Shown in pieces: positions 26,895 through 53,057 of a stretch of DNA of 64,000 nucleotides. Source of the stretch: Lutisporaceae bacterium (GTDB lineage: Bacteria > Bacillota > Clostridia > Lutisporales > Lutisporaceae). Below the pieces are notes generated by a model that saw only the letters and a program-made list of their open reading frames with translations, was not told where the DNA came from and searched no databases. A program made the position numbers and the translations under genes. How positions within the stretch are numbered: the stretch's first letter is position 1; each line of letters begins with the position of its first letter. The stretch spans positions 295,515 through 359,514 of the forward strand of contig JBMNHZ010000009.1 in the NCBI GenBank assembly GCA_050950645.1. Reading direction: 5' to 3'.

Positions 26895-26908
26895 GTATCA
26901 TATACCGT

Positions 26909-31060: not shown

Positions 31061-31121
31061 TGTGCAGGAAGACCTACCCATACGGGAGATATAATAAGCT
31101 ATAACACGAGGAGGTGTAAGA

Positions 31122-32033: not shown

Positions 32034-32047
32034 ATTATAGTAAATAT

Positions 32048-32080
32048 CAAAAGAGCCGCCTTTTGCGGCTCTTTTGATAA
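32048..32080 (+). terminator. Strong terminator after rplL
   Basis: Perfect 12-bp stem caaaagagccgc / gcggctcttttg with a T-rich 3' side. Confidence 0.7.
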
Positions 32081-32232
32081 ATTTAATCAAAATGTCTCCT
32101 TTGTTGAATACATGGTAAAAGACAAATACTGCAATTCTTGTACTACCTATCAGACTCCAAAGTAGTAAAACGAATCCAGACAGACATTACATTCTGATGG
32201 TTTTTATTTATATTCATAGGATAACAGAAAAA

Positions 32233-32263
32233 CAGGGCATCGGAGCCGAACTCCGGTGCCCTG
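32233..32263. terminator. Bidirectional terminator at the 3' end of the symporter gene
   Basis: cagggcatcggag-ccgaa-ctccggtgccctg, with an A-run upstream and ttttg downstream. On the minus strand it is followed by tttttc. Confidence 0.65.
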
Positions 32264-32282
32264 TTTTGTTAATCATGTAAGA

Positions 32283-33680: not shown

Positions 33681-33971
33681 AAATACCATCCTTTCTACTG
33701 CGCTGCAATAAGCAGCGCGGCATTTCTTTGTAGTGAGATTGTGTGGAACATAGATATTTCTGTCGTGTGCCTCAATAAAACGATACGGTTCATACCTTGG
33801 AACAGGTGAGATCATAATTATTATAACTCATCAGTTACGAAAAGTGATTTCAAATTTCTGATGAGATATTTCGAAATTCTGATTTGCAATTGTAATAATG
33901 TGTATTGTTTATTACAATAAGAAGTGTGATAATGACAAACACTGTGTTTTAGGAGAAAGGACGGCGAATTT

Positions 33972-35270: not shown

Positions 35271-35439
35271 ATAATCAAGATACCAAATATATCTCATGTA
35301 AATAATATGATAGAATAGCATCGTGAAACAATTAGATTCAGTCAGGAACAGGTGAAAAATCACAATCAACCGTCAGTTCGCAGGGCGGCAAGTGGAACAG
35401 TCGTCTATTTTGCGAGTGACAAAATGTTAGGAGGCAATT

Positions 35440-37401: not shown

Positions 37402-37545
37402 TAATATGTAAAGCATGGTTAAGGAAAAACTACACAACGTAAATGGTTGCGCTTACTCACCCAGAACATAACAAAAATACGATTTATATACCATTATGGA
37501 AATAGGATCGGAAAAAGAACAAAGAAACAGTAGGGAGGATCAGAT

Positions 37546-39075
37546 ATGAACAAAGTAATTATTACAGGGCAAAATCTGACGCTAGAAGAACTAGTAGCTG
37601 TTTCTAGGAATGATGTACAGGTTGAACTGTCTGAAGAAGCAAAGGAAAATATCTCTGAATCCAGAAAAGTTGTCGAAGACCTGGTTGAAAGCAATGCAGT
37701 CGTTTACGGCATCACGACCGGTTTTGGAAAATTTAGCGATGTTTCTATTTCTCAGGATGAATGCAAGAAACTCCAGAGGAATCTGATTATTACACATTCC
37801 GTTGGCGCAGGTGAACCTTTTTCGCGGGATGTCGTAAGAGGTATCATGCTTCTGAGGATAAACAGCCTTGCAAAGGGATTTTCGGGTGTCAGATTGGAAG
37901 TTGTTGAAACTTTAATTGCATTTCTGAATAAAGGCGTCACCCCGCAGATACCGCAACAGGGTTCATTGGGCGCAAGCGGCGATCTGACTCCTCTATCGCA
38001 TATGGTTCTGCCGATGATTGGTCTGGGCGAAGCAGAGTATAAAGGCACTGTAATGAGTGGTGCGGAGGCAATGGAAAGGGCTGGCATTCCGGTTATTGAA
38101 TTGGTTGCAAAAGAGGGCCTTGCCCTGATTAATGGTACACAAGCTATGACCTCTGTTGGAGCATTGACTCTATACGACGCATTAGAATTGCTAAAGGTTG
38201 CAGACATTGCAGCGGCACTCAGCTTTGAAGCAAATCATGGTGTTATTGACGCTCTTGATGAAAGAGTGCATGCCATCAGACCCCATGCTGGTCAAATGGA
38301 TACAGCAAAGCTGCTTGCCCGATTGCTTAAGAACAGCAGGAATGTTACCAAGCAGGGTGAAATTAGAGTGCAGGATGGCTATTCACTGCGTTGTGTCCCC
38401 CAGGTTCATGGTGCCAGCAAGGATATCATGGATTATGTTAAATCGAAAGTCGAAATTGAAATCAATTCAGTTACGGATAACCCCATTATATTTAAGGAAA
38501 CCAAAGAGGGTATTTCCGGCGGTAACTTCCATGGTCAACCGATGGCACTGTGCTTTGATTTTCTTGGAATTGCGCTGTCAGAACTTGCCAATATTTCTGA
38601 AAGACGGATTGAAAGAATGGTCAACCCGGCAATCGGAGGATTCCCTGCATTTCTGGTCAAAAATGGAGGTCTGAATTCCGGCTTTATGATTGTACAATAC
38701 TCTGCAGCCGCGCTTGTTTCTGAAAATAAGGTTTTGACACATCCTGCAAGTGTTGACAGCATTCCGTCTTCTGCAAATCAGGAAGACCATGTCAGCATGG
38801 GTACAATTGCCGCAAGAAAGGCGAAAGATATTATGAAGAATGTCAGACGTGTACTTGCTATGGAACTGATGTGTGCATGCCAGGCGATTGATCTTGGTGG
38901 AAACAAGGGACTCGGCGACGGCACAAAGAAGGCATACGATGTAATTAGAAATGTCTGTGCAACACTGGAAGAAGATCGTCCGCTATACGGTGACATTAAC
39001 CAGTGCGAAGCTACTATCGTTGATGGAAGCTTGATTGCAGCTGTTTTGAATGAGATCTCTGAGACGCAGTTCTAA
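37546..39075 (+). CDS. hutH: Histidine ammonia-lyase (MIO-dependent aromatic lyase family)
   Basis: 509 aa. YGITTGFGKF, the MIO-forming triad in GSLGASGDLTPLSH, and a HAL-type His in LQRNLIITHSVGAG. Confidence 0.8.
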   Translation: MNKVIITGQNLTLEELVAVSRNDVQVELSEEAKENISESRKVVEDLVESNAVVYGITTGFGKFSDVSISQDECKKLQRNLIITHSVGAGEPFSRDVVRGIMLLRINSLAKGFSGVRLEVVETLIAFLNKGVTPQIPQQGSLGASGDLTPLSHMVLPMIGLGEAEYKGTVMSGAEAMERAGIPVIELVAKEGLALINGTQAMTSVGALTLYDALELLKVADIAAALSFEANHGVIDALDERVHAIRPHAGQMDTAKLLARLLKNSRNVTKQGEIRVQDGYSLRCVPQVHGASKDIMDYVKSKVEIEINSVTDNPIIFKETKEGISGGNFHGQPMALCFDFLGIALSELANISERRIERMVNPAIGGFPAFLVKNGGLNSGFMIVQYSAAALVSENKVLTHPASVDSIPSSANQEDHVSMGTIAARKAKDIMKNVRRVLAMELMCACQAIDLGGNKGLGDGTKKAYDVIRNVCATLEEDRPLYGDINQCEATIVDGSLIAAVLNEISETQF

Positions 39076-39102
39076 ATTCTAATATTTAAAATACGATATA
39101 AG

Positions 39103-39143
39103 GAGTATGCTCATCATGTAATTGTGATGAGCATACTCTGTTT
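39103..39143 (+). terminator. Terminator after hutH
   Basis: 14-bp perfect stem gagtatgctcatca / tgatgagcatactc followed by tgttt. Confidence 0.6.
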
Positions 39144-39311
39144 AAATTGACGTATGTAACGGTCAAAATTCCGAATTCCGACATTTGGACAATGAACACT
39201 ATTGCGCTTGTATACTCGTGGGAAATAACTGAAAAATATTGTATTTGAATTGAAACATTTAGTATTACTGTGAAAGTGGAAGATTAAAAGTTAGTTCAGT
39301 TTGAAGATAAA

Positions 39312-39347
39312 CATGACTTTTCATAAGAAAGAAAGTCGTGTTTTTTC
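39312..39347 (+). terminator. Orphan terminator-like hairpin between the catabolic cassette and the Tad locus
   Basis: catgacttt-(loop)-aaagtcgtg (9 bp, one G-U) followed by tttttt. No ORF ends nearby. Confidence 0.4.
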
Positions 39348-39472
39348 ATTTGTATAATAAAACATACCAAATATCACATTATTATACAAATATTACAAAA
39401 TTATGCTACAATTTAACAAAATGAAGAAAAATATACAGAAAATGTAATTAATATAATATCAATGCTTGGGAG

Positions 39473-40015
39473 TTGATTGCAATAGCAATTAAGCTGATTA
39501 TAATTTCAATGCTTCTGCTGTTTGCACTGGTATCCGACCTGAGGACTTACAGCATTAAAAACTACATTACTTATGGTTTTATGCTGATAGGATTAACATT
39601 AAATTTCGCAATGGAAGGTTTAAGAGGACTGGCATTTTCACTTCAGGGCATAATAATTCCTGCTTTATTTCTATTTATCTTATATATTATGAGGATTATA
39701 GGAGCGGGGGATGTCAAACTTTTATGCGCTGTAGGGGCAGTAATGGGTGGGGTTTTTTCATTATATGCCGCAATATGCTCTTTCATCTGCGGAGGCTTTA
39801 TTGCTTCAAGCCTCATGCTGGCAAGAAATAATGCCTCAGAGAGATTTAATCATTTTATTCTGTATCTCACAAGCTGTTTTCTGACTATGAAAATTCTTCA
39901 ATATACAGACTTTGGGGACAGAAAGGATGGAGGAAAGTTTCACTTCTCATTAGCTATAGCATCAGGAACTATTGCAGCTGTAATTATTAAGAGTTTTGGA
40001 ATGTGGGGGGCATAA
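39473..40015 (+). CDS. Prepilin peptidase, A24 family (TadV/CpaA-like), copy 1
   Basis: Polytopic 180-aa protein with the two Asp motifs (VSDLRTYSIKN and IIGAGDVKLL). The TTG start is uncertain. Confidence 0.75.
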   Translation: MIAIAIKLIIISMLLLFALVSDLRTYSIKNYITYGFMLIGLTLNFAMEGLRGLAFSLQGIIIPALFLFILYIMRIIGAGDVKLLCAVGAVMGGVFSLYAAICSFICGGFIASSLMLARNNASERFNHFILYLTSCFLTMKILQYTDFGDRKDGGKFHFSLAIASGTIAAVIIKSFGMWGA

Positions 40016-40017
40016 AC

Positions 40018-41118
40018 ATGGCAAAACTGAACATAGTTATCGCAGAATGCGATGTGAATTATGCAAGGGGATTATTGGAATATATTAATTCAAATCATTT
40101 CTCATCCTTCATGGCCAGCTGTTTTACAAAGCTTGATTCCTTTGCCGCATATTTTGAGAAGCAACCTCCTGTAGATATTCTGATAATCAGTCCGGATTTC
40201 TATGATATTTCGGTCGAAGGTCTTGAAGTCAAGCTTAAGATAATACTATCAGACGGAGTTTTGAAACGTGAGTATCCCGGATATCAAGTAGTTAATAAAT
40301 ACAACACCGGAGATAAGCTGATCGGAGAGGTTTTGTATTTGTACTCCAAAACCAATAACCAAGAGATTAGACTAACATCCGGTTCAAAAAATACAGAGTT
40401 TGTAGGTGTATACTCTCCTGCAGGAGGCACAGGAAAATCTACAATAGCAGCGGCCTTAGCAACACAATGTATTGAATTGGGCATAAGATCATTTTATTTA
40501 AACTTGGAATCCATTCAATCCACCGGGGTATTTTTCAATTCATACAATAAAAGAAATCTTTCCTATGTTTTCTATTACCTTAAAGAAAAATGCCGGAATC
40601 TTTCTTTTAAAATGGACGGAATAAAATGCACCGAGGACGGAGTGGAATACTTTAATCCGCCCGAAAGCCCCATGGAGTATGAGGAGATTAACCCGGAAGA
40701 GTTGGAGCAGCTTCTGAAGGGGATTAAAGATATGGGATGCTATGATTATGTTTTTATTGATATGTACAGCAATTTTGATTTAAAGAATTATAAAATAATG
40801 GAATTATGTGACCGTATTGTTCTTGTTTCTCTGTATGAGCCAATTGCATCACATAAAAGAAAGATACTGTTTAACGAGCTTGCCAAGCTGTGTGATAGGG
40901 ATAAAGGTAGTATTTCTGATAAATTTATAATAGTAATAAACAAGCATAAGGGAAGAAATGATGAAGATATTGAAAACCTTGAAGAGAATATTCCCGCAGC
41001 CGTTAGGATTCCCGAGTTTTCAAATACATTAATAAGAGAAGATGGAAGGATTTTTAATGATGATGATAATTTCAGGAGAGCCATCAACCGGATTATTGAT
41101 ATAATATCATGCCGATGA
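40018..41118 (+). CDS. TadZ/CpaE-like pilus-assembly ATPase (pseudo-receiver N-domain + MinD/ParA-type domain)
   Basis: Deviant Walker A in VGVYSPAGGTGKSTIAAALA, with a receiver-like N-terminal third. ATG 40018 follows tgggggg. Confidence 0.7.
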   Translation: MAKLNIVIAECDVNYARGLLEYINSNHFSSFMASCFTKLDSFAAYFEKQPPVDILIISPDFYDISVEGLEVKLKIILSDGVLKREYPGYQVVNKYNTGDKLIGEVLYLYSKTNNQEIRLTSGSKNTEFVGVYSPAGGTGKSTIAAALATQCIELGIRSFYLNLESIQSTGVFFNSYNKRNLSYVFYYLKEKCRNLSFKMDGIKCTEDGVEYFNPPESPMEYEEINPEELEQLLKGIKDMGCYDYVFIDMYSNFDLKNYKIMELCDRIVLVSLYEPIASHKRKILFNELAKLCDRDKGSISDKFIIVINKHKGRNDEDIENLEENIPAAVRIPEFSNTLIREDGRIFNDDDNFRRAINRIIDIISCR

Positions 41119-41128
41119 GGTGGGATAA

Positions 41129-42367
41129 ATGGAAGACAGGGAGAAGAATCTGATAATAAATAATTTGAGGAAAGAAATAAGAGAAAGCCTGGACGTTAAA
41201 AGCCACATTACCGATGAAGATATAAATGAGTTGATAACCGACAAGGTTTTCGGGGAAGCCAGGCTTCGGCCTATGAGTATCAGAGAAAAGCAGGAGCTGA
41301 TAGCCCTGCTCTTCAATTCCATACGAAAACTTGATATACTGCAGCCGCTTATTGATGATAAGACTATAACCGAAATAATGGTGAACGGCGAGGAAAATAT
41401 TTTTATAGAAAAACAGGGAAGGACATATAGAATAGAAAATAGCTTTGAAAGCCGGCAAAAGCTTGAAGATGTCATACAATCAGTCGTTTCAAAGGTAAAC
41501 AGAGTCGTAAATGAAGCATCACCGATAGTGGATGCCAGACTGGAAGACGGGTCAAGAGTAAATGTGGTACTTCCTCCTATAGCTTTGAACGGACCTATAC
41601 TTACAATAAGAAAGTTTCCTGAAAAGCCTATATCGATGAAGGACCTGATTGAATGGGGATCCATTTCAAGTGAGGCTGCCGAAGTCCTGGAAAGGATGGT
41701 AAGAGCAAAATACAACATTTTCATATGTGGGGGTACCGGCTCGGGCAAAACCTCTTTTCTTAATGCTCTTTCAGATTTCATACCCCAGGATGAACGAATT
41801 GTTACAATTGAGGATCCGGCTGAATTACAAATAAAGCAAATAAAGAACATAGTTAAGCTGGAGACCAGAAACGCGAATACCGAAGGTAAAGGAGAAATCA
41901 CCATCAGGGATCTGATAAGGACATCTTTGAGAATGAGGCCTGAAAGAATCATCATAGGTGAGGTAAGAGGAGCTGAAGCCCTGGACATGCTTCAGGCAAT
42001 GAATACGGGACATGACGGTTCAATATCAACAGGCCATGGAAACTCCACCGCAGATATGCTGTCACGCTTGGAGACAATGGTGCTAAGCGGTTCGACGATG
42101 CCTTTGGAGGCTATAAGGCAGCAGATTTCTTCAGCTATTGATATTATAATACATCTTTCAAGATTCAGGGACAGGACGAGAAAGGTTGTGGAAATAGTGG
42201 AGGTTACAGACTGCAAAGAAGGAATAATAGGACTCAATCCCCTTTTTGAATTCAGGGAAAAAGACGGTTCAACACCGGAAAGGGTTGAAGGGTGCCTTGT
42301 AAGGACCGGTAATCCTGTAAAAAACCTGTCAAAGTTCAGAATGGCAGGGATAAATGAAGTTGTTTGA
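41129..42367 (+). CDS. tadA: Tad secretion ATPase (CpaF/TadA, T2SSE family)
   Basis: Walker A ICGGTGSGKTSFLNAL, Asp-box VTIEDPAEL, Walker B ERIIIGEVRGAEA, His-box NTGHDGSISTGHGNS. Confidence 0.9.
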   Translation: MEDREKNLIINNLRKEIRESLDVKSHITDEDINELITDKVFGEARLRPMSIREKQELIALLFNSIRKLDILQPLIDDKTITEIMVNGEENIFIEKQGRTYRIENSFESRQKLEDVIQSVVSKVNRVVNEASPIVDARLEDGSRVNVVLPPIALNGPILTIRKFPEKPISMKDLIEWGSISSEAAEVLERMVRAKYNIFICGGTGSGKTSFLNALSDFIPQDERIVTIEDPAELQIKQIKNIVKLETRNANTEGKGEITIRDLIRTSLRMRPERIIIGEVRGAEALDMLQAMNTGHDGSISTGHGNSTADMLSRLETMVLSGSTMPLEAIRQQISSAIDIIIHLSRFRDRTRKVVEIVEVTDCKEGIIGLNPLFEFREKDGSTPERVEGCLVRTGNPVKNLSKFRMAGINEVV

Positions 42368-42376
42368 GGTGATTAT

Positions 42377-43132
42377 ATGGCAGCATCTCCCATTGACTAC
42401 AATACATATGTGATGACATTAAGAGAAAAGGTTTTCTGCATTCTTGCGGCTTGCGCAGTTATATTTGCAGCAGGCTATATTTTCTACAGAAATGTTTTAC
42501 TCTCGTTGCTATTAATGCCATTTGCCCTTTTATATCCCAGAATCAAGACAAAGGAGATCATAAAAAAAAGAAAAAACGAGCTGAATTTGCAGTTCAGAGA
42601 AGCCCTCTATTCGCTGGCATCGTCATTATCCGTGGGAAAATCAATAGAAACGGCGATCAGGGATTCGCTTAAAGAGCTTTCCATACAGTATCCCGATGCT
42701 GATACATATATATTGATTGAACTTGAGCAAATAAACAGAAGAGTTGAGATGAATGAGACCATAGAGGAAGCCTTGATCGATTTTGCCCAAAGATCACATT
42801 TGGAGGACATAATAAACTTTGCCGATGTTTTTGCAATATGCAAGCGTACAGGAGGCAATCTTGTCCAGGTAATTAAGAATACCTCTGAGATAATTAGCGA
42901 GAAAATTGATACTAAACAGGAGATTAATCTTTTGCTTATGGAAAAAAGGCTGGAGCATAAAGTGCTTAATCTGATGCCAATTCTTATTGTAATCCTGCTG
43001 TCCTCCAGCGCTGAGGAATTTATGGCCCCGGTATTTTCAGAGCCTGCCGGAAGAGCGGCTATGACTTTTTCATTAGTACTTTTTGCTGCTGCATACTTTA
43101 TATCGAAAAAAATTATGGATATTGAGGTATGA
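42377..43132 (+). CDS. tadB: TadB-like inner-membrane platform protein (T2SSF family)
   Basis: 251 aa with TM segments flanking a cytoplasmic helical domain. Sits directly after the ATPase gene. Confidence 0.75.
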   Translation: MAASPIDYNTYVMTLREKVFCILAACAVIFAAGYIFYRNVLLSLLLMPFALLYPRIKTKEIIKKRKNELNLQFREALYSLASSLSVGKSIETAIRDSLKELSIQYPDADTYILIELEQINRRVEMNETIEEALIDFAQRSHLEDIINFADVFAICKRTGGNLVQVIKNTSEIISEKIDTKQEINLLLMEKRLEHKVLNLMPILIVILLSSSAEEFMAPVFSEPAGRAAMTFSLVLFAAAYFISKKIMDIEV

Positions 43133-43135
43133 CCT

Positions 43136-43999
43136 ATGCTGGCGATATTGATAATTGAAATTATGGTTTTTGGGTTTCTTTGTTTCTATGCAAAGGACAA
43201 ATATGAAGATTTCACAAGAGCACAGCGAAAAAAAGCGTGTATATCCATAACTATAATGCCTGCCGCTTTATTAATTGCAGACAAGCTTATTATTGGGCGA
43301 TTCATTGCTTATGAAAGGAAGATCAGTATAAAGCTTGCAGAACTTTATGGGGGCAGGGATGTCAAGCATATGCTCAAGCTTCATATTACTCATAAGGTAA
43401 TCCATTTGACTGCTGCTCTATTATCAGTCACTTTGCTTGGGGTATTAATGGACAAGCCTGGTATCGGCTATGCAGTGTTTGCTTTGTTAATACTTGTGAT
43501 TGTTTTTTATGCTTCAGACAGAAGGTTGGATGAAAGAATTAAGAAAAGAAATTTTAGTATCCGATATGATTTTCCTGATTTTCTTAATAGGATGGTTCTG
43601 CTTATTAATGCAGGAATGACTGTATTCCGAGCCTGGGAGAAGACTGTAAGAGACAGAAAGAATATGACTCCTCTCTATGAAGAACTGAGAATAACCTATA
43701 TTGAGATAAAGAATGGAAAACCTGAAATAGAAGCTTATGAGGACTTTGCGAGACGATGCAGAGTTAAGGAAATAACCAAGTTTGTTACTGCTGTTATACA
43801 GAACCTGAGAAAAGGCAGCAGTGATTTGGTCCCCTTACTGAAGCTTCAATCGAATGAATGCTGGCAGCTTAGGAAGAGTTTGGCAAAGAGGTTGGGGGAG
43901 GAGGCTTCGACCAAGCTGGTGCTTCCACTGATGATTATGTTTGTAGGAATACTGATTATTGTAATACTTCCTGCAGTAATGCAGTTAAAATACTTATAG
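43136..43999 (+). CDS. tadC: TadC-like inner-membrane platform protein (T2SSF family)
   Basis: 287 aa with the same architecture as the preceding gene. The start is 3 nt after the tadB stop. Confidence 0.75.
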   Translation: MLAILIIEIMVFGFLCFYAKDKYEDFTRAQRKKACISITIMPAALLIADKLIIGRFIAYERKISIKLAELYGGRDVKHMLKLHITHKVIHLTAALLSVTLLGVLMDKPGIGYAVFALLILVIVFYASDRRLDERIKKRNFSIRYDFPDFLNRMVLLINAGMTVFRAWEKTVRDRKNMTPLYEELRITYIEIKNGKPEIEAYEDFARRCRVKEITKFVTAVIQNLRKGSSDLVPLLKLQSNECWQLRKSLAKRLGEEASTKLVLPLMIMFVGILIIVILPAVMQLKYL

Positions 44000-44066
44000 A
44001 AGCGAGACCCGAAGCGCGCAGCCTGACCTGAAAGGATATCAAATATAAATTATGGGAGGTAGTAAA

Positions 44067-44279
44067 ATGTTAAAACAAATAAAGGGGCTTATATCAGAGG
44101 AGGAGGGCATAAGCACGGTTGAGATTGTGGTAATTATTGCAATTCTTGTAGGAATAGCATTACTCTTTAGAAAGTCGATAACTGCTTATGTGCAGAAGGT
44201 TATAAGTAATTTTATTGATACTGCTCCTACTGTCGAAAACTTGGAGGTTGATATGGAAGCACCTTTGCCGAAGGATTAA
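44067..44279 (+). CDS. flp: Flp-type type IVb prepilin
   Basis: 70 aa: short charged leader MLKQIKGLISEEEG, then ISTVEIVVIIAILVGIALLF (G|xxTVE Flp-like processing site followed by a hydrophobic helix). ATG 44067 follows gggaggt. Confidence 0.75.
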   Translation: MLKQIKGLISEEEGISTVEIVVIIAILVGIALLFRKSITAYVQKVISNFIDTAPTVENLEVDMEAPLPKD

Positions 44280-44294
44280 TACCTTGTAAGTGGA

Positions 44295-44957
44295 TTGTGG
44301 AGGTGGTGGTTTCTGGACAAGCATAAAAGTGAGAACGGAAGCTATACCGTTGAAGCTGTCATGGTGTTTGTGATTATTATGTTTGCAGTATTAGCACTGC
44401 TATTTTCTTTCCTGTACATGCAGCAAAAAACAAGCCTTGAAAGCATTGCCTCATTTGCTGCCCAGCAGGGGGCGGAAATATGGCCGGACAGTAGAAGAAA
44501 TATCGTGGATGAATTAATGATTTCAAGTATAACCTATGAAGGATACTTTGAAAAAGCGTCCTCCGGGGATGGTAAATCAGAAATGGTGTTAAGAATGGAT
44601 GTGGGGAATGATTTGTCGGGGCAAAAAGCTGCTCTGATAGGGGAAGCACTGAGTAAAAGAATTGAAAGTACGATTCTGAACCCTGAGAGCACAAGGGTAA
44701 AGATTACATTCAATAATAATTTCCTAAGGAGAAGTATCATAATTGAATTAAACCAGGAGATTAAAGTTCCTTTAGGCGGCTTAAAGGAATTTTTCGATGG
44801 CAAGGATACACTGGTTTTAAGCGCTCGATCCGCTGCAACAGTAACAGAGCCTGATGAATTTATCAGGAATGCCGATCTAATGGCAGAGTTATCAAAGAAG
44901 TTTGGGGAGAAGATTGATTTGAAGGATTTGGCAGACAGAATAAGTTCAAAGCAATGA
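44295..44957 (+). CDS. TadE/TadF-like pseudopilin
   Basis: N-terminus ...SENG|SYTVEAVMVFVIIMFAVLALLF resembles a TadE-type leader plus helix. The start codon (TTG 44295) is uncertain. Confidence 0.6.
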   Translation: MWRWWFLDKHKSENGSYTVEAVMVFVIIMFAVLALLFSFLYMQQKTSLESIASFAAQQGAEIWPDSRRNIVDELMISSITYEGYFEKASSGDGKSEMVLRMDVGNDLSGQKAALIGEALSKRIESTILNPESTRVKITFNNNFLRRSIIIELNQEIKVPLGGLKEFFDGKDTLVLSARSAATVTEPDEFIRNADLMAELSKKFGEKIDLKDLADRISSKQ

Positions 44958-44985
44958 AATTACCGATTATCAAGGAGAGAGGCGA

Positions 44986-46998
44986 ATGTACCAAAATAAC
45001 GGCTGCATAAAAAAAGAGAGAGGAGCAATTACTGTTTTTCTGGCACTTATTTTCATGTCTCTGATACTTTTTGCAGGAACAGTAATTGATATTGTAAGAA
45101 TTACTGCTGCAGACCGGAGGGTCCAAAGCGCCTTAAATACCTCAGCCAGGTCCGTATTGGCGGAATATGAAAGTGAGCTTATAGGCAATTATGGAATATA
45201 TGGGGTTAATGCTGCAGGAGCAAATGTAAAAGAAGATTTTTACAGATACATGAGTGTGAATCTAAAGGAACGGCATGAGAACATAAACTTTATAGAAATT
45301 GACATAGATTTTGAAGATATTCAAATACAAGGTATGGACAGCCTGCTGAAGCATGAGGCATTTAAGAGGCAGGTGCAGGAATACATGAAGTACAGAACAC
45401 CGATTAAATCGGCTGATACTCTGATTGAGCAGCTGCAGAATATTAAACTGGATAAGAAGATTAATTTTATAAATAGTGAGAAGATAACCAGGGATAAGGC
45501 AAGAGAGCTGAGAGCAAAGGTAAATGAGGCAAATTCAAAGCTTACAGCCATTAAAAAAAAGCTCACAAATTTAAGTGCAAAAAAACTTGAGGATTTAAGG
45601 AATGAGCTTTTAGAAGCTTTGGAAATCAATCGCTCGATTTACGACGGGAATAATAAAGGCCTTCTGGTTGATTATATTCAAAGCAGGGATGATACAAATG
45701 TTAAGGCTAAAAAAGGCGAATTCATCGGAAATCAGTCCCGGGAGTTTGCCGGCATAATGGGAAACAGCGAAAATATTGCTCCCGGGATTCAAAGATATTT
45801 AGAGGAGATAAATAAAACACTCCTGAAGGTAAAACCGCTTCAGAAGGAACTCGATATTATGAAAGAAAGCCTTGAAAGCCTGAGGGAGGAGATGGATAAA
45901 TTAAATGATGACGAAATAAATGAAGTCAGAGACGATATTGATAAGGTTAAAGATAAAATCATGCAGCTTGAATCACAAATTGATGAGGAAATATCAGGGT
46001 TGAAAGTGAAGCTTGGAGAGACTGCTCTTGAGGGTTATTTCCTGGAGCCGGAGATTGTGGAAATCGACAAAAAGGCGGAGGATCTGAAAGAATTTATTGG
46101 CAAGACAAAGGAAGACATTGAGAAAGCATTGCTTAGGAAACTTGAAAAGGATTGGCTGATAGCCCCTGAAGAATTTGAAGACAGCAGTATTATTACTGGC
46201 GATAACCTTGAAGAAATGGATGAAAATGCATATTTCAGCTTATCAATTCAGGAGGAAGAAGCTGAGAAAAGAAATAATGAAATAGTAAATATAGCGGAGA
46301 GACTTTCGGATGCAGTTAAAGATACTGCTTCAAGTGCATTGGAGAAGATAAATACCATTGAATATGTGATGGACAAGTATACCTTCCTGACCTCCAGGAC
46401 AAAAAGGAATCATTTCTTCAACAAGGGTGAAGTGGAGTACATTATCAGCGGGCCGGATATTAATGAAGAATACAGCCAAATAAAGAATACTGAGTATTAT
46501 ATAGTGACAAAGGTGCTGCTTCAGGTTTGGGCATTGAGATTTGCATTAAATACGATAGATGCTTTTATCACAAGCACTGTAGTATTTCCTCCCCAAAGAC
46601 TTGCTTTTGCTCTTGCTGAAGGTGCACTGGACTCAAGTCTCGATATGTTTAATTTGCTTAATGGCGAGTCTGTGCCAATATGTCCGAAGAGCTTTACGGC
46701 AATTAAACTAAAGTATTCGGATCACTTAAGAATTCTGCTTTTGATGAAGCCTGAGGAAGAAATCCTGAGAAAGGCGAGACAGCTTATACAAGTAAATATT
46801 AAGCAGGTTATAGATGCGGAGACAGGGCTTCCAAGGTCGGATTTCAGATTAGGAGATTATAGTACTGTTATCTTTGCCTCTGTAAAGGCAAAGGTAAACC
46901 TTTTCTTTCTTCCTCTTTTGAAGGTTGACAGGCTGCTGCCCGGCAGCTTTGAAAACGGAAGGTATATAATACGAAAACAAATATATGTTGGCTATTAG
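44986..46998 (+). CDS. Large TadG-like pilus-associated protein with a long central coiled coil
   Basis: 670 aa. N-terminus KKERG|AITVFLALIFMSLILFAGTVIDIVRITAADRRVQSALN (Tad N-terminal domain pattern), an approximately 300-aa K/E/L-rich helical middle, and a hydrophobic C-terminal region. Confidence 0.65.
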   Translation: MYQNNGCIKKERGAITVFLALIFMSLILFAGTVIDIVRITAADRRVQSALNTSARSVLAEYESELIGNYGIYGVNAAGANVKEDFYRYMSVNLKERHENINFIEIDIDFEDIQIQGMDSLLKHEAFKRQVQEYMKYRTPIKSADTLIEQLQNIKLDKKINFINSEKITRDKARELRAKVNEANSKLTAIKKKLTNLSAKKLEDLRNELLEALEINRSIYDGNNKGLLVDYIQSRDDTNVKAKKGEFIGNQSREFAGIMGNSENIAPGIQRYLEEINKTLLKVKPLQKELDIMKESLESLREEMDKLNDDEINEVRDDIDKVKDKIMQLESQIDEEISGLKVKLGETALEGYFLEPEIVEIDKKAEDLKEFIGKTKEDIEKALLRKLEKDWLIAPEEFEDSSIITGDNLEEMDENAYFSLSIQEEEAEKRNNEIVNIAERLSDAVKDTASSALEKINTIEYVMDKYTFLTSRTKRNHFFNKGEVEYIISGPDINEEYSQIKNTEYYIVTKVLLQVWALRFALNTIDAFITSTVVFPPQRLAFALAEGALDSSLDMFNLLNGESVPICPKSFTAIKLKYSDHLRILLLMKPEEEILRKARQLIQVNIKQVIDAETGLPRSDFRLGDYSTVIFASVKAKVNLFFLPLLKVDRLLPGSFENGRYIIRKQIYVGY

Positions 46999-47003
46999 GG
47001 TGG

Positions 47004-47951
47004 TTGAAATTGCATAGATTTTGTAAGAAGCTGAACTCCAGAGGTTCGATAACAGTTGAGGCTTGTGTTGTATTTCCCATTTTTATAAGCGTATTTTTTC
47101 TGCTGCTTTTTCTTATCAAGTTTACATGCACAGGTATGGCGCTTGATTATGCTGTAAATGAAGCAGCCAAGGAAATAGCTGCAGCAGCATATCCCATATC
47201 CTTTGTAAATGAACTGGAGGATGAAAAGCTGCAGGAGTATGGGAATACAAAAATACCTACACTGGAGGAAGAGCTGGAAAAGCTTGTTAGCGGAATAGCA
47301 GGAACCAGTTTCGATAATATTCTGGGCGTCATTATATCGGAGAACCTTAAAGAGACGGATTTTACTGATGCAGTACAGGATGTATTAAAGGACTACAGCA
47401 GAGGAATTATCGGAAATATTGTTGATGTGATGGCCCCTGCATATTGGGATATGAAATCCGCCGTCAAGTATTCCGCTGCCGAAGCGATTATTAAGAAACA
47501 CCTGGAAAGCCCGCTGATCAATCGAGAAAATATAAAGCTGCAGCTTGTTGAATTTCCCCAGGGCAGAGAAGAATACAGCGTAAGGTCATCAAGTGCGATA
47601 TATGGTAAGCTGGGACTGATTCCGGAAAAGGATTTCAGCAGAGACGACATTGTGCTGCAGCTAAGTTACGATTATAAGGTGAATCTTCCATTCCTGGGGC
47701 CTCTTAATATACGAATGATTCATACCGCTGTGGAAAGGGCATGGATCAACGGAAGCTTCGGGATACTGACAGCTGACGACGAAGGCTTTAATTTGGAATC
47801 GGAAGGCAGAATTGTATATATCACAAGGACGGGTATCCGCTATCATGAAGAGGACTGCAGGTACCTCAGGAAAAGTAAAATCCCGATTATAATTGAAGAG
47901 GCTGAAGGGTCAGGCTATACTCCATGCAAGGTTTGCAAACCGCTGGGCTAG
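47004..47951 (+). CDS. TadE-like pseudopilin with a C-terminal His/Cys zinc-ribbon-like motif
   Basis: N-terminus NSRG|SITVEACVVFPIFISVFFLLLFLI. C-terminus IVYITRTGIRYHEEDCRYL...GYTPCKVCKP. The start is TTG 47004 or TTG 47010. Confidence 0.6.
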   Translation: MKLHRFCKKLNSRGSITVEACVVFPIFISVFFLLLFLIKFTCTGMALDYAVNEAAKEIAAAAYPISFVNELEDEKLQEYGNTKIPTLEEELEKLVSGIAGTSFDNILGVIISENLKETDFTDAVQDVLKDYSRGIIGNIVDVMAPAYWDMKSAVKYSAAEAIIKKHLESPLINRENIKLQLVEFPQGREEYSVRSSSAIYGKLGLIPEKDFSRDDIVLQLSYDYKVNLPFLGPLNIRMIHTAVERAWINGSFGILTADDEGFNLESEGRIVYITRTGIRYHEEDCRYLRKSKIPIIIEEAEGSGYTPCKVCKPLG

Positions 47952-47980
47952 GCTGCAAAATTACTAACAGGGAGGATATT

Positions 47981-48433
47981 ATGAGGTATCATTTACTGAC
48001 AGATGATGCAAGATTTTTCCCATATATAACAGTTGTAGTATTGCTTGCTGCAGCTGCAATTATCGATATCAGGGAGAGAAGAATACCGGATAAGCTGGTG
48101 CTTGCAGGTACTGCCGGAGGATTGGCCTTTGTTTTGATTAACCCACAAATAGATTTGCTTAACAGCCTTATGGGCGGTGTAACAGCGGGGTTGGTGCTGC
48201 TTCTTGTTTATTACATTACAAAGGGTGGCATCGGACTTGGAGACGTAAAGCTTTTTGGCTGCTCAGGAATTTATCTGGGTTTCGAAAACACTGTCTCCGC
48301 AATGTTGATTTCTGCAGTTCTAGCTGGATTATTCAGTCTGGCACTTATATGTATAAACCGTAACAACAAGAAACGTGAAATACCTTATGCACCCTTTATA
48401 TTGGCAGGTGTACTTACGGTTATAATATTCTAA
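47981..48433 (+). CDS. Prepilin peptidase, A24 family, copy 2
   Basis: Asp motifs IDIRERRIPD and GIGLGDVKLF. ATG 47981 follows gggagga; the track ORF starts upstream at 47924 and overlaps the previous gene. Confidence 0.75.
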   Translation: MRYHLLTDDARFFPYITVVVLLAAAAIIDIRERRIPDKLVLAGTAGGLAFVLINPQIDLLNSLMGGVTAGLVLLLVYYITKGGIGLGDVKLFGCSGIYLGFENTVSAMLISAVLAGLFSLALICINRNNKKREIPYAPFILAGVLTVIIF

Positions 48434-48457
48434 TTAGTATGCAGTGGAGGGGTCATT

Positions 48458-49795
48458 GTGGAAAATATAGGATTAGATTTTGAATACGGTTATGATAATG
48501 ATGCAGCCGGTAGTTGTCTGGTTCTTAAGATTAATAATGATACAAAGCTGCTGAATCATCAGGTAGAGATTTTATGTCAGAATCCCAATTCTTCTTTTGT
48601 TCCATTTCATATAAAGCGAGAAAATGAAAATGTTTTTATCTGTTATAATATAACCTCCAAAATATCATTATCTCAGTATATTGAAAGAAAAAGCCTAAAG
48701 AAGAAGGAGCTTCTGGATTTGCTCAGGAACATTGTAAAAAATCTGATGCTTCATGGCAATTACTTATTGGATCTTTCAGGCTTCATCATCCATTCGGATT
48801 TTATATTTGTTAACCCTGCGACAGCGGAAGTTTCGCTTTTATATGTACCTGTTCCCTGCAGCAGGAATTCAAAGGAGATATTAAGATCCTTTTTTAAAGA
48901 TATTGTGGTTAATTCATCCAGTAACGATGACGATGCAAGGGATAATTACCTGCAAAGGATATTGAATTATTTAAAATCGGATACGTTCAGCCTCATTGAA
49001 TTTAACAGATTGATTGTAGATTTGAGAAACAGTGGAGAATTATGCGAATATGAAAAGAGGACAGCTGATAGAGAAGCAGCCGCTGAAATGGATACCCCCT
49101 GCGGCAAGAGTCTTGAGGAAAGGGCTTATGCAGAGGTTGGAAAGAGCAAGAGTATCAGAAGCATAATTTTACTGCAGCCATTCTTTTTAATAGCTGTAGT
49201 TATTGCGTACTTATTAATGGCAGTGAGAGGAACGGGGGATATTATATCTATTTCGGCAGTGGTGCTTATTGCAGCCGCATTGGATATCCTTGCAATTAAA
49301 AAGATAATGGATTGGGAATGGAAGAGGGTACCGGTAGAAGATACTCATCTTACAGCACAAGATAAAGCAAAGGGCGGCACGGGCTGCAGGGACAAAAGTA
49401 TCAGAAGCAGGTATAAACAGGTGATTTCATTACCCGATGTAGTGAAAGCCAATGATACAATTTTAATCTCCGAAGTTCCGAAGGATTGCAATCCATATCT
49501 GGAGAGCATAGGGTCCAATAGAGTTGAAAGAATAGTAATTAATAAGAATAAATTTTTAATAGGCAGATTGGGCAGTATGGTCGACCATATTATTCAGGGA
49601 AATACAATAGGAAAGCTTCATGCAGAAATTAAAGTAAATGAAGGGCTTTTTTACATAAAGGACCTTAACTCGAAAAACGGAACTTATGTGAACGGCGTAA
49701 GAATTTCCGGCAATAATGAATGTGAAATAAAGGAAAATGATATAATAAGGTTTTCAAACTATGAATATGTTTTCAGAAATCAGAGAGCTGAATAA
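48458..49795 (+). CDS. Membrane protein with an uncharacterised N-terminal domain, two TM helices and a C-terminal FHA domain
   Basis: 445 aa. TM pair IILLQPFFLIAVVIAYLLMAV / ISISAVVLIAAALDILAI. C-terminal FHA pattern FLIGR...HAEI...YIKDLNSKNGTYVNG..I.....I..NDIIRF. GTG start 5 nt after tggagggg. Confidence 0.75.
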   Translation: MENIGLDFEYGYDNDAAGSCLVLKINNDTKLLNHQVEILCQNPNSSFVPFHIKRENENVFICYNITSKISLSQYIERKSLKKKELLDLLRNIVKNLMLHGNYLLDLSGFIIHSDFIFVNPATAEVSLLYVPVPCSRNSKEILRSFFKDIVVNSSSNDDDARDNYLQRILNYLKSDTFSLIEFNRLIVDLRNSGELCEYEKRTADREAAAEMDTPCGKSLEERAYAEVGKSKSIRSIILLQPFFLIAVVIAYLLMAVRGTGDIISISAVVLIAAALDILAIKKIMDWEWKRVPVEDTHLTAQDKAKGGTGCRDKSIRSRYKQVISLPDVVKANDTILISEVPKDCNPYLESIGSNRVERIVINKNKFLIGRLGSMVDHIIQGNTIGKLHAEIKVNEGLFYIKDLNSKNGTYVNGVRISGNNECEIKENDIIRFSNYEYVFRNQRAE

Positions 49796-49823
49796 GAATT
49801 AAACATGATAGGGGGTGCCCCTG

Positions 49824-50039
49824 ATGAAGCTTCATTTTATATACATATTTATTGGAATTTCAACTCTTACTCTAAACCTTATACTTACTCTCCATATAAT
49901 CAGGAAACATAAAAATGAGGGCTGCCAAAGGAATTGGGATTATGAACAAGTGATAACCTTCAGGCTGTCCGGAAAAGAAAGCATTGAGGGTATTACTACC
50001 GCAGCAGCGGCCTGTGATGATACGGTGCCTCTGGAATAA
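49824..50039 (+). CDS. Small hypothetical membrane protein
   Basis: One hydrophobic helix (LHFIYIFIGISTLTLNLILTL). Weak evidence; accepted only because it sits between two co-directional genes. Confidence 0.3.
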   Translation: MKLHFIYIFIGISTLTLNLILTLHIIRKHKNEGCQRNWDYEQVITFRLSGKESIEGITTAAAACDDTVPLE

Positions 50040-50065
50040 TAATGCCGTGCAGTGGAGGGTGAAGA

Positions 50066-50959
50066 ATGCAAATCGGGAGTATATTAAACGAAAAGTATCG
50101 GATTGACAAATTTTTAGGCAAAGGTGGGACAGCTTCTGTTTATTTATGTACCAATATTGAAATTGGAAACAGGTGGGCTTTGAAGCATATTCCGCCGGAC
50201 AAAACAAATGAAATAGCAATGTCGGAGATTGAAATACTTAAGAGACTGTACCATCCCAGCCTGCCAAGGATTGTTGATGTATTCCGCAATAAACAGGGTA
50301 TTTATATTGTCGAAAGCAATATAGAGGGTATCCCCATGGACAGGATGCTGAAAAAGCATGGCAGCTTTGGACTTGAGAAAGTCACAGACTGGTTTATGGA
50401 GCTTTGTGATATATTGAAATACCTGCACAGCGTCAAGCCAAGGCCTATTATATATAGGGATATGAAGCCGTCAAATATAATACTTACACAGGGCGGCAGA
50501 CTGGTACTGGTTGATTTCGGGGTATCCCAGGAGTACTTTGAGTATGAATTAAGGGACAGTGTTCTTGCGGGTACGAGTGCGTATGCAGCACCGGAGCAGC
50601 TGATAAAAGGGGGAAAGACAGATCAGAGGACAGATATTTACAACCTGGGTGCAACAGTGTATCAAATGCTGTATGGCAGGCTGGCAGGCGGCACAAATGA
50701 CAAAGCTGGTTCTATCAAAGGCAAGGCAGCAGCGAAGATGGGCAGTATAATTTCCAAGTGTATGGAGAACAGGCCGGAGGACAGATACCAGAGGGTAGAA
50801 GATATACAGAAAGAGCTGGAGGCTGTAAAGAGTATGCTGGCAGCGGGCAAGGTAAGGCAGGGAATTGTTTTTAAGCTTGAGATGGCTTCAATAGCAGCAT
50901 TGTCGGCAGTCTCATATGCTGCTGCGGTACTGGGCGCATTGTATTCGACGTCGAAATAA
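50066..50959 (+). CDS. Hanks-type Ser/Thr protein kinase with a C-terminal membrane anchor
   Basis: GKGGTASVY...WALKHI (ATP-binding Lys), catalytic loop YRDMKPSNIIL, DFGVS, APE. The C-terminal hydrophobic tail is MASIAALSAVSYAAAVLGALY. No PASTA repeats. Confidence 0.85.
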   Translation: MQIGSILNEKYRIDKFLGKGGTASVYLCTNIEIGNRWALKHIPPDKTNEIAMSEIEILKRLYHPSLPRIVDVFRNKQGIYIVESNIEGIPMDRMLKKHGSFGLEKVTDWFMELCDILKYLHSVKPRPIIYRDMKPSNIILTQGGRLVLVDFGVSQEYFEYELRDSVLAGTSAYAAPEQLIKGGKTDQRTDIYNLGATVYQMLYGRLAGGTNDKAGSIKGKAAAKMGSIISKCMENRPEDRYQRVEDIQKELEAVKSMLAAGKVRQGIVFKLEMASIAALSAVSYAAAVLGALYSTSK

Positions 50960-51113: not shown

Positions 51114-52305
51114 ATTTTAGGTAAATTGTAAAATGAAGTGTCGCGATAGATAACAAAAGTGTCCCATAGGGACCAACTCAGCTATAATGTTAAGTGACCA
51201 AACCCAACAAAAAGGAGAGAGGTATATGGGACACTTACATTGTAGCAAGATTGAGCATAAAAATAAACACTTAAATTACAGGGAACGGCTGAGAATAGAA
51301 ATAATGCTTAAGGAAGGTGCCGGCACAAAGGAAATTAGTGAAATAATTGGTTGCAGCCAGAGGACTATACAAAGAGAGCGAAAACGCGGTTTAATAAAAC
51401 AAATTAATTCGAACTTGGAATATTACCAGGTATATGACGCAGATTATGCCCAGAACGACTATATAGCAAAACATGAATGTAAGGGGCCAGGACTAAAAAT
51501 AGGGCACGATCATAAATTGTGCGAGTATATAGAAGAAAAAATCAAAGCAGGCTGGTCGCCGGACATAATTGCAAAAGAGATTAGAAAAAAGGCAGAATTC
51601 AAAGATACAAGAATATGCACAAAGACAATATACAACTATATAGATAAGAATGTTTTTCTAAATATCAGTTATAAGGATTTAATATATGGCAGGTATCGAA
51701 AGAGAACAGGTACAGGAGTAAACAGGCCATCTTACAAGAATATAAAAGGTCGTAGCATAGATGAAAGGCCATCTAGTGTTGATGAACGACAAGAAGTGGG
51801 ACATTGGGAAATGGATTTAGTGTTAGGCAAGAAAGGAGGAAGCAAAAGCGTCTTACTTACAATGACAGAACGAGTAAGCAGACGTGAAATCATTCGAAAA
51901 CTGCCTGATAAAAGCCAAGAAAGTGTAATAAAGGCGCTGGATGTAATGGAACGGCAAATGGGGCGAATTAAGTTCAAGGATACATTTAAAAGCATAACAG
52001 TTGATAATGGTTCAGAGTTTTTAAACAGTTCGGAAATGGAGAGGTCTTGCCTTGGTAAGAAAAGAACAAGAACGATGGTATTTTACGCACACCCATATAG
52101 TGCATATGAACGAGGGAGCAATGAGAATATGAACCGGATGATACGCCGCTTTATACCCAAAGGAGCAGATATTGGTAAATATAGTAAACAGGAAATAAAG
52201 CGCATCGAAAATTGGTTAAACAATTATCCAAGGAAGATCCTGGATTACTATACTCCACTTGAAGCCTATAATCAGGTTGCTTAACAGAGGCGACATTTAA
52301 TGTTG
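51114..52305 (+). mobile_element. IS30-family insertion sequence (ends uncertain by about 10 bp)
   Basis: One IS30-type transposase ORF. A 19-bp direct repeat caatttatgggcataccaa lies at 51095-51113 and 52306-52324. Inverted repeats gtaaattgtaaaatgaagtgtcgc (51121-51144) versus gcgacatttaatgttgcaatttat (52290-52313); the right one overlaps the repeat. Confidence 0.65.
51226..52284 (+). CDS. IS30-family transposase
   Basis: N-terminal HTH (ISEIIGCSQRTIQRERKRG) and a DDE core (HWEMDLV ... TVDNGSEF ... HPYSAYERGSNEN). ATG 51226 follows aaaggagaga. Confidence 0.85.
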   Translation: MGHLHCSKIEHKNKHLNYRERLRIEIMLKEGAGTKEISEIIGCSQRTIQRERKRGLIKQINSNLEYYQVYDADYAQNDYIAKHECKGPGLKIGHDHKLCEYIEEKIKAGWSPDIIAKEIRKKAEFKDTRICTKTIYNYIDKNVFLNISYKDLIYGRYRKRTGTGVNRPSYKNIKGRSIDERPSSVDERQEVGHWEMDLVLGKKGGSKSVLLTMTERVSRREIIRKLPDKSQESVIKALDVMERQMGRIKFKDTFKSITVDNGSEFLNSSEMERSCLGKKRTRTMVFYAHPYSAYERGSNENMNRMIRRFIPKGADIGKYSKQEIKRIENWLNNYPRKILDYYTPLEAYNQVA

Positions 52306-52334
52306 CAATTTATGGGCATACCAAATGGGAAGCA

Positions 52335-52808
52335 TTGAACTTAAGTGACCTTAAAGCATTAAAGAAAGTAATGAAAGAGCTTTATGATGAAACAGAGAGC
52401 GAAAGAAAACGTAAAGAGATCCGGGAGAGTTTTCTTTACTTTAAGAACAATTGGGATGGAATAGAAATCTATGAAAAAGAAAGGGAAAGTATAGTAGGAT
52501 GCAGTGCGGAAGGACATAACAGCCATATACTTGCTGATCGCATGAGCAGCAGGCCAAAGGGCTGGAGTATGGAAGGTGCAGAGAAAATGGCAAGGTTAAG
52601 GGCATTTAAAGCAAACGGCGGCAATGTATATGATTTTATGAAGGAACAGAAGAAAGAAAAGAAACTCTATGATATTACTACAAAGCTCTTAAAAGAGACA
52701 AAAAAGAAGCTCAAACAGAAAAAGACAGCCGAGATAATTGGAAACATTGAAGTCTTCAAAATAGGAAGGATAACGGGACTTTATAAGGCATTGAAAGAGC
52801 TCTGCTGA
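52335..52808 (+). pseudogene. C-terminal remnant of an ISLre2-family transposase
   Basis: The remnant stretch FLYFKNNWDGIEIYEKERESIVGCSAEGHNSHILADRMSSRPKGWSMEGAEKMARL is collinear with YSYFKENRDGLIPYQERG...GTMEHHICDIISQRMKHRKASWSIEGANNLGKL in the intact transposase at 684-2147. The roughly 300 N-terminal residues are missing. Confidence 0.6.
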
Positions 52809-52871: not shown

Positions 52872-53057
52872 TTATATATTGCATTGTAGTAAGTATTTTT
52901 GCTTAATACTGCTGCATTTGAATAAGGATAGCTAAAAGAGGCAATATTAAAATAGGTGTGCTTTAATTGTGCGGACAAACCAAAAGCGTTACTATTTAGG
53001 GGGATTTTTTGCTTTTGGCTATTTTAATTTATTTAAATTTAAGGGGTGAAAGACTTT

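Follow-up and report, generated by a model that had tools for sequence, protein, structure and literature searches.

We conclude, with a probability of roughly 0.7, that positions 39473–50959 of a 64,000-nt stretch of contig JBMNHZ010000009.1 from a Lutisporaceae bacterium form a single operon for a monoderm Tad (type IVc) pilus, in a layout common in Clostridia, and that the last genes of this operon encode a phospho-switch acting on pilus assembly. The whole stretch is referred to here as the window, all coordinates are positions in it, and related loci used for comparison are labelled L007–L087. Judged by its domain content, the region encodes a complete monoderm Tad machine. The locus is an ordinary, intact member of the clostridial Tad locus type, neither unusual nor an island, and it is the pseudokinase-FHA switch at its distal end that could prove to be new biology.

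Thirteen open reading frames (ORFs) make up the region, all on the plus strand and separated by gaps of 2–67 bp when gene-caller starts from identical metagenome contigs are used. The co-directional, tightly spaced set of 13 genes that a sequence-only reading of this DNA had proposed was recovered in full from the ORF list and Pfam searches, and consists of the following (lengths in amino acids, aa; arrows mark predicted leader cleavage sites):

39473..40015, plus strand: A24 prepilin peptidase, paralogue a, 180 aa (Pfam Peptidase_A24, 3e-13)
40018..41118, plus strand: TadZ/CpaE-like protein, 366 aa, with an atypical receiver and a ParA/MinD-type ATPase domain (3fkq)
41129..42367, plus strand: TadA/CpaF secretion ATPase, 412 aa (T2SSE, 3.5e-59)
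42377..43132, plus strand: TadB-type platform protein, 251 aa, single T2SSF domain (Pfam, 6e-8)
43136..43999, plus strand: TadC-type platform protein, 287 aa, single T2SSF domain (Pfam, 9e-10)
44067..44279, plus strand: Flp-like prepilin, 70 aa (Flp1_like, 5e-14)
44295..44957, plus strand: TadE-like minor pilin 1, 220 aa, leader SENG↓SYTVEA (TadE, 4e-3, below cut-off)
44986..46998, plus strand: TadG-like/DUF5702 protein, 670 aa, leader KERG↓AITVF (DUF5702, 4e-6)
47010..47951, plus strand: TadE-like minor pilin 2, 313 aa, leader NSRG↓SITVEA (TadE, 1.6e-3, below cut-off)
47981..48433, plus strand: A24 prepilin peptidase, paralogue b, 150 aa (Peptidase_A24, 1e-18)
48458..49795, plus strand: membrane scaffold protein, 445 aa, DUF6382 and FHA domains (DUF6382, 2e-25; FHA, 3.5e-17)
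49824..50039, plus strand: small single-pass membrane protein, 71 aa (ORF of 74 aa), no Pfam family match
50066..50959, plus strand: Hanks-type Ser/Thr kinase, 297 aa, C-terminal membrane anchor (Pkinase, 3.9e-41)

Each gene assignment made earlier is upheld by domain or structure matches, the TadE and TadG labels being carried by weak N-terminal matches together with a prepilin-like leader. Profile searches of the kind that had been proposed as a check were positive for Peptidase_A24, T2SSE, T2SSF, Flp1_like, FHA and Pkinase, and stayed below the gathering scores for TadE and Tad. The TadZ-like protein matched the solved TadZ of Eubacterium rectale (3fkq, 1e-26) over residues 3–335, which cover both domains, and in Pfam it gave weak AAA_31/CbiA matches below the cut-off. 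The TadA protein matched CpaF structures over residues 10–376 (1e-93), and matched TIGR03819 at 1.4e-87 with 294 bits, which does not reach the equivalog cut-off of 373. NCBIfam contained no family for the TadB, TadC, Flp, TadE1, DUF5702 or TadE2 proteins of the locus, and for both peptidases returned only faint matches, to archaeal FlaK and EppA. The two peptidase paralogues share 24% identity, and each keeps both of its catalytic Asp contexts: VSDLR and GAGDVK in paralogue a, which has a TTG start with a GGGAG ribosome-binding site 5' of it, and IIDIR and GLGDVK in paralogue b. By homology, TadB and TadC would form the membrane platform, TadA/CpaF would power polymerisation, TadZ would serve as a ParA-like organiser, and cleavage after the conserved Gly, in the Flp-like prepilin as in the three pilin-like proteins, would fall to the two A24 aspartic peptidases. 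A division of labour between the paralogues, over the pilin and the minor pilins, is a speculative possibility. In most Lachnospiraceae-type Tad loci (L040–L087), the paralogue at the position of peptidase b, in the gene after TadE2, is without the G-x-G-D-x-K catalytic motif, which is kept in the window's clade and in Acetivibrio-type loci; the Lachnospiraceae-type protein may be an inactive peptidase homologue.

Prepilin-type leaders occur on four proteins in total, and those of the three pilin-like proteins have the form G↓(S/A)xTV(E/F). The Flp-like prepilin has the leader MLKQIKGLISEEEG↓ISTVEIVV (EEEG↓ISTVEI), with Glu at +5 and Ile in place of Tyr at +6, and its mature form is predicted to be 56 aa long. 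Flp-like pilins without Tyr at +6 have been noted for Gram-positive loci (PMC3244431). The genes for TadE-like minor pilin 1 and for the TadG-like protein are conserved in position across related loci. The latter protein has a C-terminal DUF5702 domain (26.4 bits against a cut-off of 26), a long coiled-coil region in its centre, and an N-terminal Tad segment that falls just under the threshold (2.8e-4, 21.6 against a cut-off of 22.3). The C-terminus of minor pilin 2 carries a zinc-ribbon-like motif, YH-x3-C...C-x2-C (47830–47951), which is kept in 30 of 49 homologues (L011–L086) and has the appearance of a small module that binds zinc, placed at what is predicted to be the extracellular end. 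In many Lachnospiraceae the motif is doubled, and the remaining homologues have another tail. By homology, priming the fibre or forming its tip would be the role of the TadE-like, DUF5702 and TadE-Zn proteins.

A Pfam search found no RcpA secretin, RcpB/C or TadD among the 13 genes, in agreement with the earlier statement that secretin and TadD are missing here, as in monoderms. The absence of secretin, RcpB/C and TadD is normal in monoderm Tad systems (PMC6916266), and because it is expected there it does not exclude membership in the Tad family. The encoded protein occurs on 11 metagenome contigs, and an identical locus, gene for gene and with equal gene lengths, was seen on at least six of them. 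Since the identical locus recurs on independent metagenome contigs, both an assembly artefact and the pseudogenisation that had been raised as a possible refutation are excluded.

To place the locus among its relatives, one genome per species was scanned, the 80 loci most similar to the query DUF6382-FHA protein were retained, and their ORFs were searched with the window proteins, Tad linkage being scored as the count of Tad core genes per locus. At least two Tad core genes lay beside the FHA gene in 57 of the 80 loci, a fraction biased upward by the choice of the most query-similar loci, and in four further loci, mostly on short contigs, an A24 gene alone was visible. Among the 57 Tad-linked loci, 13 had a PP2C phosphatase gene, 10 a Hanks kinase gene and 5 both, and both A24 paralogues were present in 22. 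The recurrent order was TadZ-TadA-TadB-TadC-Flp-TadE-DUF5702-TadE-A24-DUF6382/FHA, often followed by PP2C and/or kinase and a second A24 gene, in hosts that included Lachnospiraceae, Oscillospiraceae, Clostridiaceae, Acetivibrio, Vallitalea, Alkaliphilus and Paenibacillus. The FHA proteins of Pseudobacteroides cellulosolvens (L009/L010) and Acetivibrio saccincola (L007), at 27–31% identity, are encoded in Tad loci with a PP2C gene next to them. The Pseudobacteroides loci show the full order, TadZ-TadA-TadB-TadC-Flp-TadE-DUF5702-TadE-A24-DUF6382/FHA-PP2C-A24; in the Acetivibrio locus the FHA/PP2C pair is divergent from the tad genes and there is no DUF5702 gene. Because the gene set recurs in order across related loci it is not unusual, and what the sequence-only reading had called an unusual accessory set proved, on neighbourhood comparison, to be a common Tad layout in Clostridia and some Paenibacillus. 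It had also denied the distal half any counterpart in the classical loci, which was right for the second peptidase, the DUF6382-FHA protein, the small membrane protein and the kinase, and wrong for the remainder, since TadE/TadF pseudopilins, TadG and the TadV peptidase belong to the classical set of the Aggregatibacter locus. Two of the loci surveyed, L024 (9917–12802) and L039 (9815–18280), had no Tad genes and contained two tandem DUF6382-FHA genes, a kinase gene and a PP2C gene. In L039 an EssC-like FtsK/FHA ATPase adjoins the two DUF6382-FHA genes, and L039 is thus like the type VII secretion system (T7SS) variant T7SSe.

The DUF6382-FHA protein was analysed with an alignment of 31 relatives and an AlphaFold model of the full protein, the N-terminal domain being modelled alone as well. 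In the full model it consists of the DUF6382 domain (residues 1–195), two predicted membrane helices (approximately 227–289) compatible with a hairpin, a disordered linker, and, at the C-terminus, an FHA domain (approximately 345–440); the two named domains are the confident regions, and the linker has a predicted local distance difference test score (pLDDT) below 50. Modelled alone, the DUF6382 domain reached a pLDDT of 88 and a predicted template-modelling score (pTM) of 0.86. Among the best structural matches of this model in a Foldseek search of the PDB was TraF (8cba, 5e-6), a component of the type IV secretion system of pIP501, through its N-domain. Also among them were the kinase-homology domain of Rv3910/MviN with a template-modelling score (TM) of 0.66–0.70, including the FhaA-bound complex 3oun, PknI, and the T7SS pseudokinase YukC/EssB (6z0f, 3e-5), followed by dozens of true kinases. 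Eight residues of the domain are invariant in the 31-sequence alignment (Q35, N42, Y63, T66, S67, L71, Y129 and P131), none of which corresponds to the kinase catalytic Lys, Asp or DFG. Because the predicted fold is kinase-like and the invariant residues are not the catalytic ones, DUF6382 is best read as a short pseudokinase domain that is catalytically dead. A PDB profile search with the DUF6382-FHA protein returned FHA matches only and no kinase. The domain family is large, with approximately 2,090 clusters at 50% identity (E ≤1e-3), and among the matches listed DUF6382 lies at or near the N-terminus.

In the FHA domain, the GR pair, K386, H388 and S405-x-N-G-T are conserved across the same alignment, and the model matched its structural targets with TM of 0.8–0.9, phosphopeptide-bound FHA domains being among them. 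Immediately of interest for a switch is Thr334, in the linker before the FHA domain, which is invariant in all 31 sequences and is followed at +3 by Ile, Leu or Val in 30 of the 31. The resulting candidate phospho-site motif is (D/E)-T-x-x-(I/L/V), and a similar motif is present in 30 of 40 further homologues, one of them T7SS-linked. The form pT-x-x-(I/L/V) is a common type of FHA ligand.

The kinase encoded by the last gene has its motifs intact (GKGGTASV, the Lys of ALKH, YRDMKPSN, DFG and APE), matches the kinase domain of Staphylococcus aureus PknB (4eqm) at 1.6e-28, and is predicted from its sequence to be active. Five related loci (L011, L012, L018, L026 and L034) keep a gene for the small membrane protein between those for FHA and kinase; their small proteins share a transmembrane segment and a V(I/V)(T/S)F-x-L motif, and where present the gene always lies directly 5' of the kinase gene. 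Gene linkage, domain content and predicted fold all point to the last three genes as a built-in Ser/Thr phospho-signalling module, composed of a kinase, a small membrane partner and a pseudokinase-FHA protein. The kinase and the pseudokinase-FHA protein probably switch pilus assembly on and off through threonine phosphorylation. As we envisage it, the kinase would phosphorylate the linker residue Thr334 or a Tad component, and the FHA domain would bind that phosphothreonine, in cis or in trans. Binding would then change how the scaffold oligomerises or what it partners with, so that Tad assembly is licensed or blocked. Where sister lineages encode a PP2C phosphatase at the equivalent position, this enzyme could reverse the mark and reset the switch.

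Several observations weigh against this interpretation. A kinase or phosphatase gene was found within 10 kb in only 18 of the 57 Tad-linked loci, and the partner of the FHA protein may often be a distant kinase, or, by analogy with EssC-EssB in the T7SS of type b (T7SSb), the protein may act without phosphorylation (PMC11217815). The Tad fraction in the survey carries the sampling bias given above, and on the pilin side the Pfam matches to TadE (4e-3 and 1.6e-3) and Tad (2.8e-4) are under their gathering scores. An hhalign comparison of DUF6382 with the locus kinases was not significant (probability 0.4%), and since the sequence-profile comparison fails to reach significance, it is the predicted structure that carries the kinase-fold assignment. 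As we read that alignment, the aligned stretch of DUF6382 appears to map to the equivalent part of the kinase fold. Finally, the canonical Ser of the FHA motif 'SRxH' is Gly385 in the window protein and in nearly all relatives, and because of this replacement phosphothreonine binding is plausible but not assured.

The Ser-to-Gly replacement is also the first point in favour of the alternative that survives best, in which the DUF6382-FHA protein is a structural, phosphorylation-independent Tad scaffold, comparable to EssB with the FHA domains of EssC, and the kinase targets something else. The FHA-pseudokinase contact in T7SSb is thought to be phosphorylation-independent (PMC11217815), and kinase and phosphatase genes are missing from many loci. 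We nevertheless consider this alternative unlikely, as the remaining phosphate-contacting positions of the FHA domain (GR, K386, S405, N407 and T409) are invariant, the Thr-x-x-(I/L/V) motif is invariant too, and a kinase and/or PP2C gene lies directly 3' of the FHA gene in 18 loci from different families. A second alternative, in which the FHA protein, the small ORF and the kinase serve general signalling, adjacent to the Tad genes but with no action on the pilus machine, appears more improbable still. It gains from the scarcity of nearby kinase or phosphatase genes at most Tad-linked FHA genes, and from the pleiotropic roles that Hanks kinases and FHA proteins have in Bacillota. Set against it is the fixed position of the FHA gene, after the second peptidase gene or after flp, across 57 loci whose Tad proteins have diverged to 20–30% identity. 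The gaps between the genes are 19–28 bp, with no terminator-like site within them, and outside Tad loci the DUF6382-FHA family occurs not at random, but in another envelope machine, the T7SS.

A phospho-switch built into the Tad operon would have parallels in other systems. TseJ/TsfJ are DUF6382-FHA proteins that occur with the PPM phosphatases TseF/TsfF and a membrane kinase in T7SSe and T7SSf; a TadZ-like receiver domain occurs in a further T7SSf protein, and Tad genes adjoin T7SSg and T7SSh, although the report describing them (Microlife 2024, PMC11217815) does not link DUF6382-FHA to Tad. T7SSe and T7SSf share the DUF6382-FHA family with our locus, where the module is instead embedded in a Tad operon. 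A T7SS reading of the locus itself was rejected, there being no EssC-type ATPase: no FtsK_SpoIIIE match above noise was found among the 13 proteins, and apart from rpoB and rpoC no ORF of the window exceeds 700 aa. No WXG100 or YukD-like gene was present among the 13 genes, to which that search was confined. Pseudokinase, FHA and Hanks kinase functions are likewise combined in mycobacteria (MviN, or Rv3910, with FhaA and PknB), and pseudokinase and FHA domains in T7SSb (EssB/YukC with the FHA domains of EssC), and the predicted fold of DUF6382 best matches membrane-anchored pseudokinase domains of this kind (3uqc, 3otv, 3oun and 6z0f). Compared with those pairs, pseudokinase and FHA domain are here in one polypeptide, split by a membrane hairpin, DUF6382 is shorter (approximately 195 aa), and there is no significant similarity in sequence. 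FHA proteins have further been linked to the Tad-like Kil apparatus of Myxococcus (PMC8460266) and to archaellum control through ArnA/ArnB in Sulfolobus (PMC4858521). These systems, and PpkA-Fha1-PppA of the Pseudomonas H1 type VI secretion system, have in common with our locus FHA proteins with kinases or phosphatases encoded with the machine or acting on it, and the FHA domain of ArnA is among the structural matches of the locus FHA domain. They differ in having other architectures, diderm or archaeal hosts, and no DUF6382 pseudokinase domain.

Clostridial tad operons were catalogued by Imam et al. 2011 (PMC3244431) and Denise et al. 2019 (PMC6668835), and a review of monoderm type IV pili covers only the minimal Tad sets of Bifidobacterium and Micrococcus (PMC6916266); neither FHA nor a kinase is named in PMC3244431 or PMC6916266. 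Monoderm Tad pili, including tad2003 of Bifidobacterium breve, tad/com of Micrococcus luteus and the clostridial pili, share with our locus TadZ, TadA, TadB and TadC as well as a short pilin of the Flp type, a TadV-type A24 peptidase and minor pilins of the TadE type, the last being putative in the window, and they lack secretin, RcpB/C and TadD alike. Relative to the monoderm Tad papers, the locus adds the pairing of TadZ with a TadG-like protein, two peptidase paralogues, DUF5702, and the kinase and pseudokinase-FHA module, which go unmentioned there. We found no paper on DUF5702, and DUF6382 only in the T7SS paper (PMC11217815). The literature search also yielded no paper tying DUF6382-FHA to Tad loci or naming DUF6382 a pseudokinase, none joining FHA/kinase with Tad in Firmicutes, and none bringing 'tight adherence' together with pseudokinase and FHA. 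New here are the predicted kinase fold of DUF6382, the invariant linker Thr and the tie of DUF6382-FHA to Tad; the locus type itself is known.

The window thus offers a clean, intact example of the standard clostridial layout, including a conserved, unstudied pseudokinase-FHA and kinase/phosphatase module. Tad pili are colonisation factors, and we know of almost no experimental work on them in Clostridia. Thr334, the FHA residues Arg370 and Lys386, and the kinase provide testable handles on switching in monoderm Tad systems. Through the shared DUF6382-FHA family, Tad loci are also tied to variant type VII secretion systems. A wider conjecture, which we hold only tentatively and at somewhat worse than even odds, is that DUF6382-FHA with a kinase and/or PP2C is a portable phosphothreonine switch of Bacillota, used on different envelope-spanning machines, Tad here and T7SSe/f elsewhere. 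In it, a phosphorylated linker Thr would drive the membrane pseudokinase scaffold to assemble through its FHA domain, and the scaffold would recruit TadZ/TadA and license pilus extension. If this holds, clostridial Tad piliation, including that of the abundant gut Lachnospiraceae, would be under post-translational control by an unstudied signalling pathway.

The junction between rplL and rpoB is among the most stable gene junctions in bacteria, and a pilus operon of approximately 12 kb conserved within it is a curiosity worth recording. As the sequence-only reading had it, rplL (31650–32033) and rpoB (53046–57098) bracket the region, the gap between them being approximately 21 kb in the window. 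The Tad operon lies within this junction in at least five related genomes, whose RpoB proteins are 80–95% identical to that of the window. L011 (226–14719) has rplL, the Tad operon and rpoB, with no hut genes and no IS30; in L026 (203–1342) rplL is directly 5' of the first peptidase gene, and in L034 (11556–16800), L012 and L018 (7301–8747) rpoB is directly 3' of the kinase gene. RpoB identity to the window is 95% in L011 and 80% in L034, and that of the Tad proteins runs from 88% down to 24%, a pattern that fits long vertical residence. Two candidate control elements lie 5' of the operon:

39102..39139, plus strand: terminator-like hairpin, 17 pairs, after hutH, separating the upstream genes from the Tad operon
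39383..39412, plus strand: candidate operon promoter, TATACA, 18 nt, TGcTACAAT (extended -10), from consensus match and conservation

Approximately 100 bp 5' of the first peptidase gene are conserved between the window, L011 and L026, and the -10 element reads TATAAT in the latter two. No riboswitch or leader was detected 5' of the operon, either in an Rfam E-value scan of 38900–39600 or in a gathering scan of the whole window. The interval between rplL and the Tad genes (32034–39472) contains an SSF symporter gene on the minus strand and genes for an AraC regulator, a flavin/FAD oxidoreductase and histidine ammonia-lyase (hutH), a block that is not in L011 or L026. Its G+C content is 0.44–0.48, above that of its neighbours, and that of the Tad genes is 0.35–0.41. 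After the kinase gene, at 51187–52808, there is an IS30-type transposase gene (rve and HTH_38) followed by a 157-aa fragment, the C-terminal end only, of a UPF0236 transposase. At that place L011 has two small unrelated ORFs. The rplL terminator hairpin is retained directly after rplL in the window. Because of this terminator, the retained Tad promoter and the synteny in L011 and L026, the hut-type block and IS30 are later insertions, the former separating the rplL terminator from the Tad promoter and the latter lying on the rpoB side. On this comparison the Tad operon has occupied the rplL-rpoB gap of this clostridial lineage for a long time and has a predicted promoter of its own. The weakest alternative, a recently acquired accessory island with a one-off gene set at the rplL|rpoB junction, can point to the transposase gene and UPF0236 remnant in the gap and to a Tad G+C somewhat below the 0.46–0.48 of the genes just upstream, but is largely refuted for this lineage by the synteny in L011, L026, L034, L012 and L018, by Tad proteins that drop to 24–68% identity as RpoB goes from 95% to 80%, and by the conserved promoter, the retained rplL terminator and the wide recurrence of the gene set. 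The earlier suggestion of an island that is probably accessory is accordingly abandoned, the hut block and the IS30/UPF0236 segment being the only window-specific parts.

Elsewhere in the window, the Rfam gathering scan identified three features:

13095–13304: T-box leader
26733–26985: tRNA-Tyr/Gly/Thr cluster
30943–31063: L10 leader 5' of rplJ

A 399-aa ORF at 24987–26186 matched no Pfam family at E ≤1e-5. The rpoB gene encodes a long RpoB of 1350 aa, with a Lys/Glu-rich insertion and a strongly acidic C-terminal tail of approximately 100 aa. In the L012 chromosome, a metagenome-assembled genome, rpoB (15431–19431) is split into many short frames, and these breaks are probably assembly or sequencing frameshifts.

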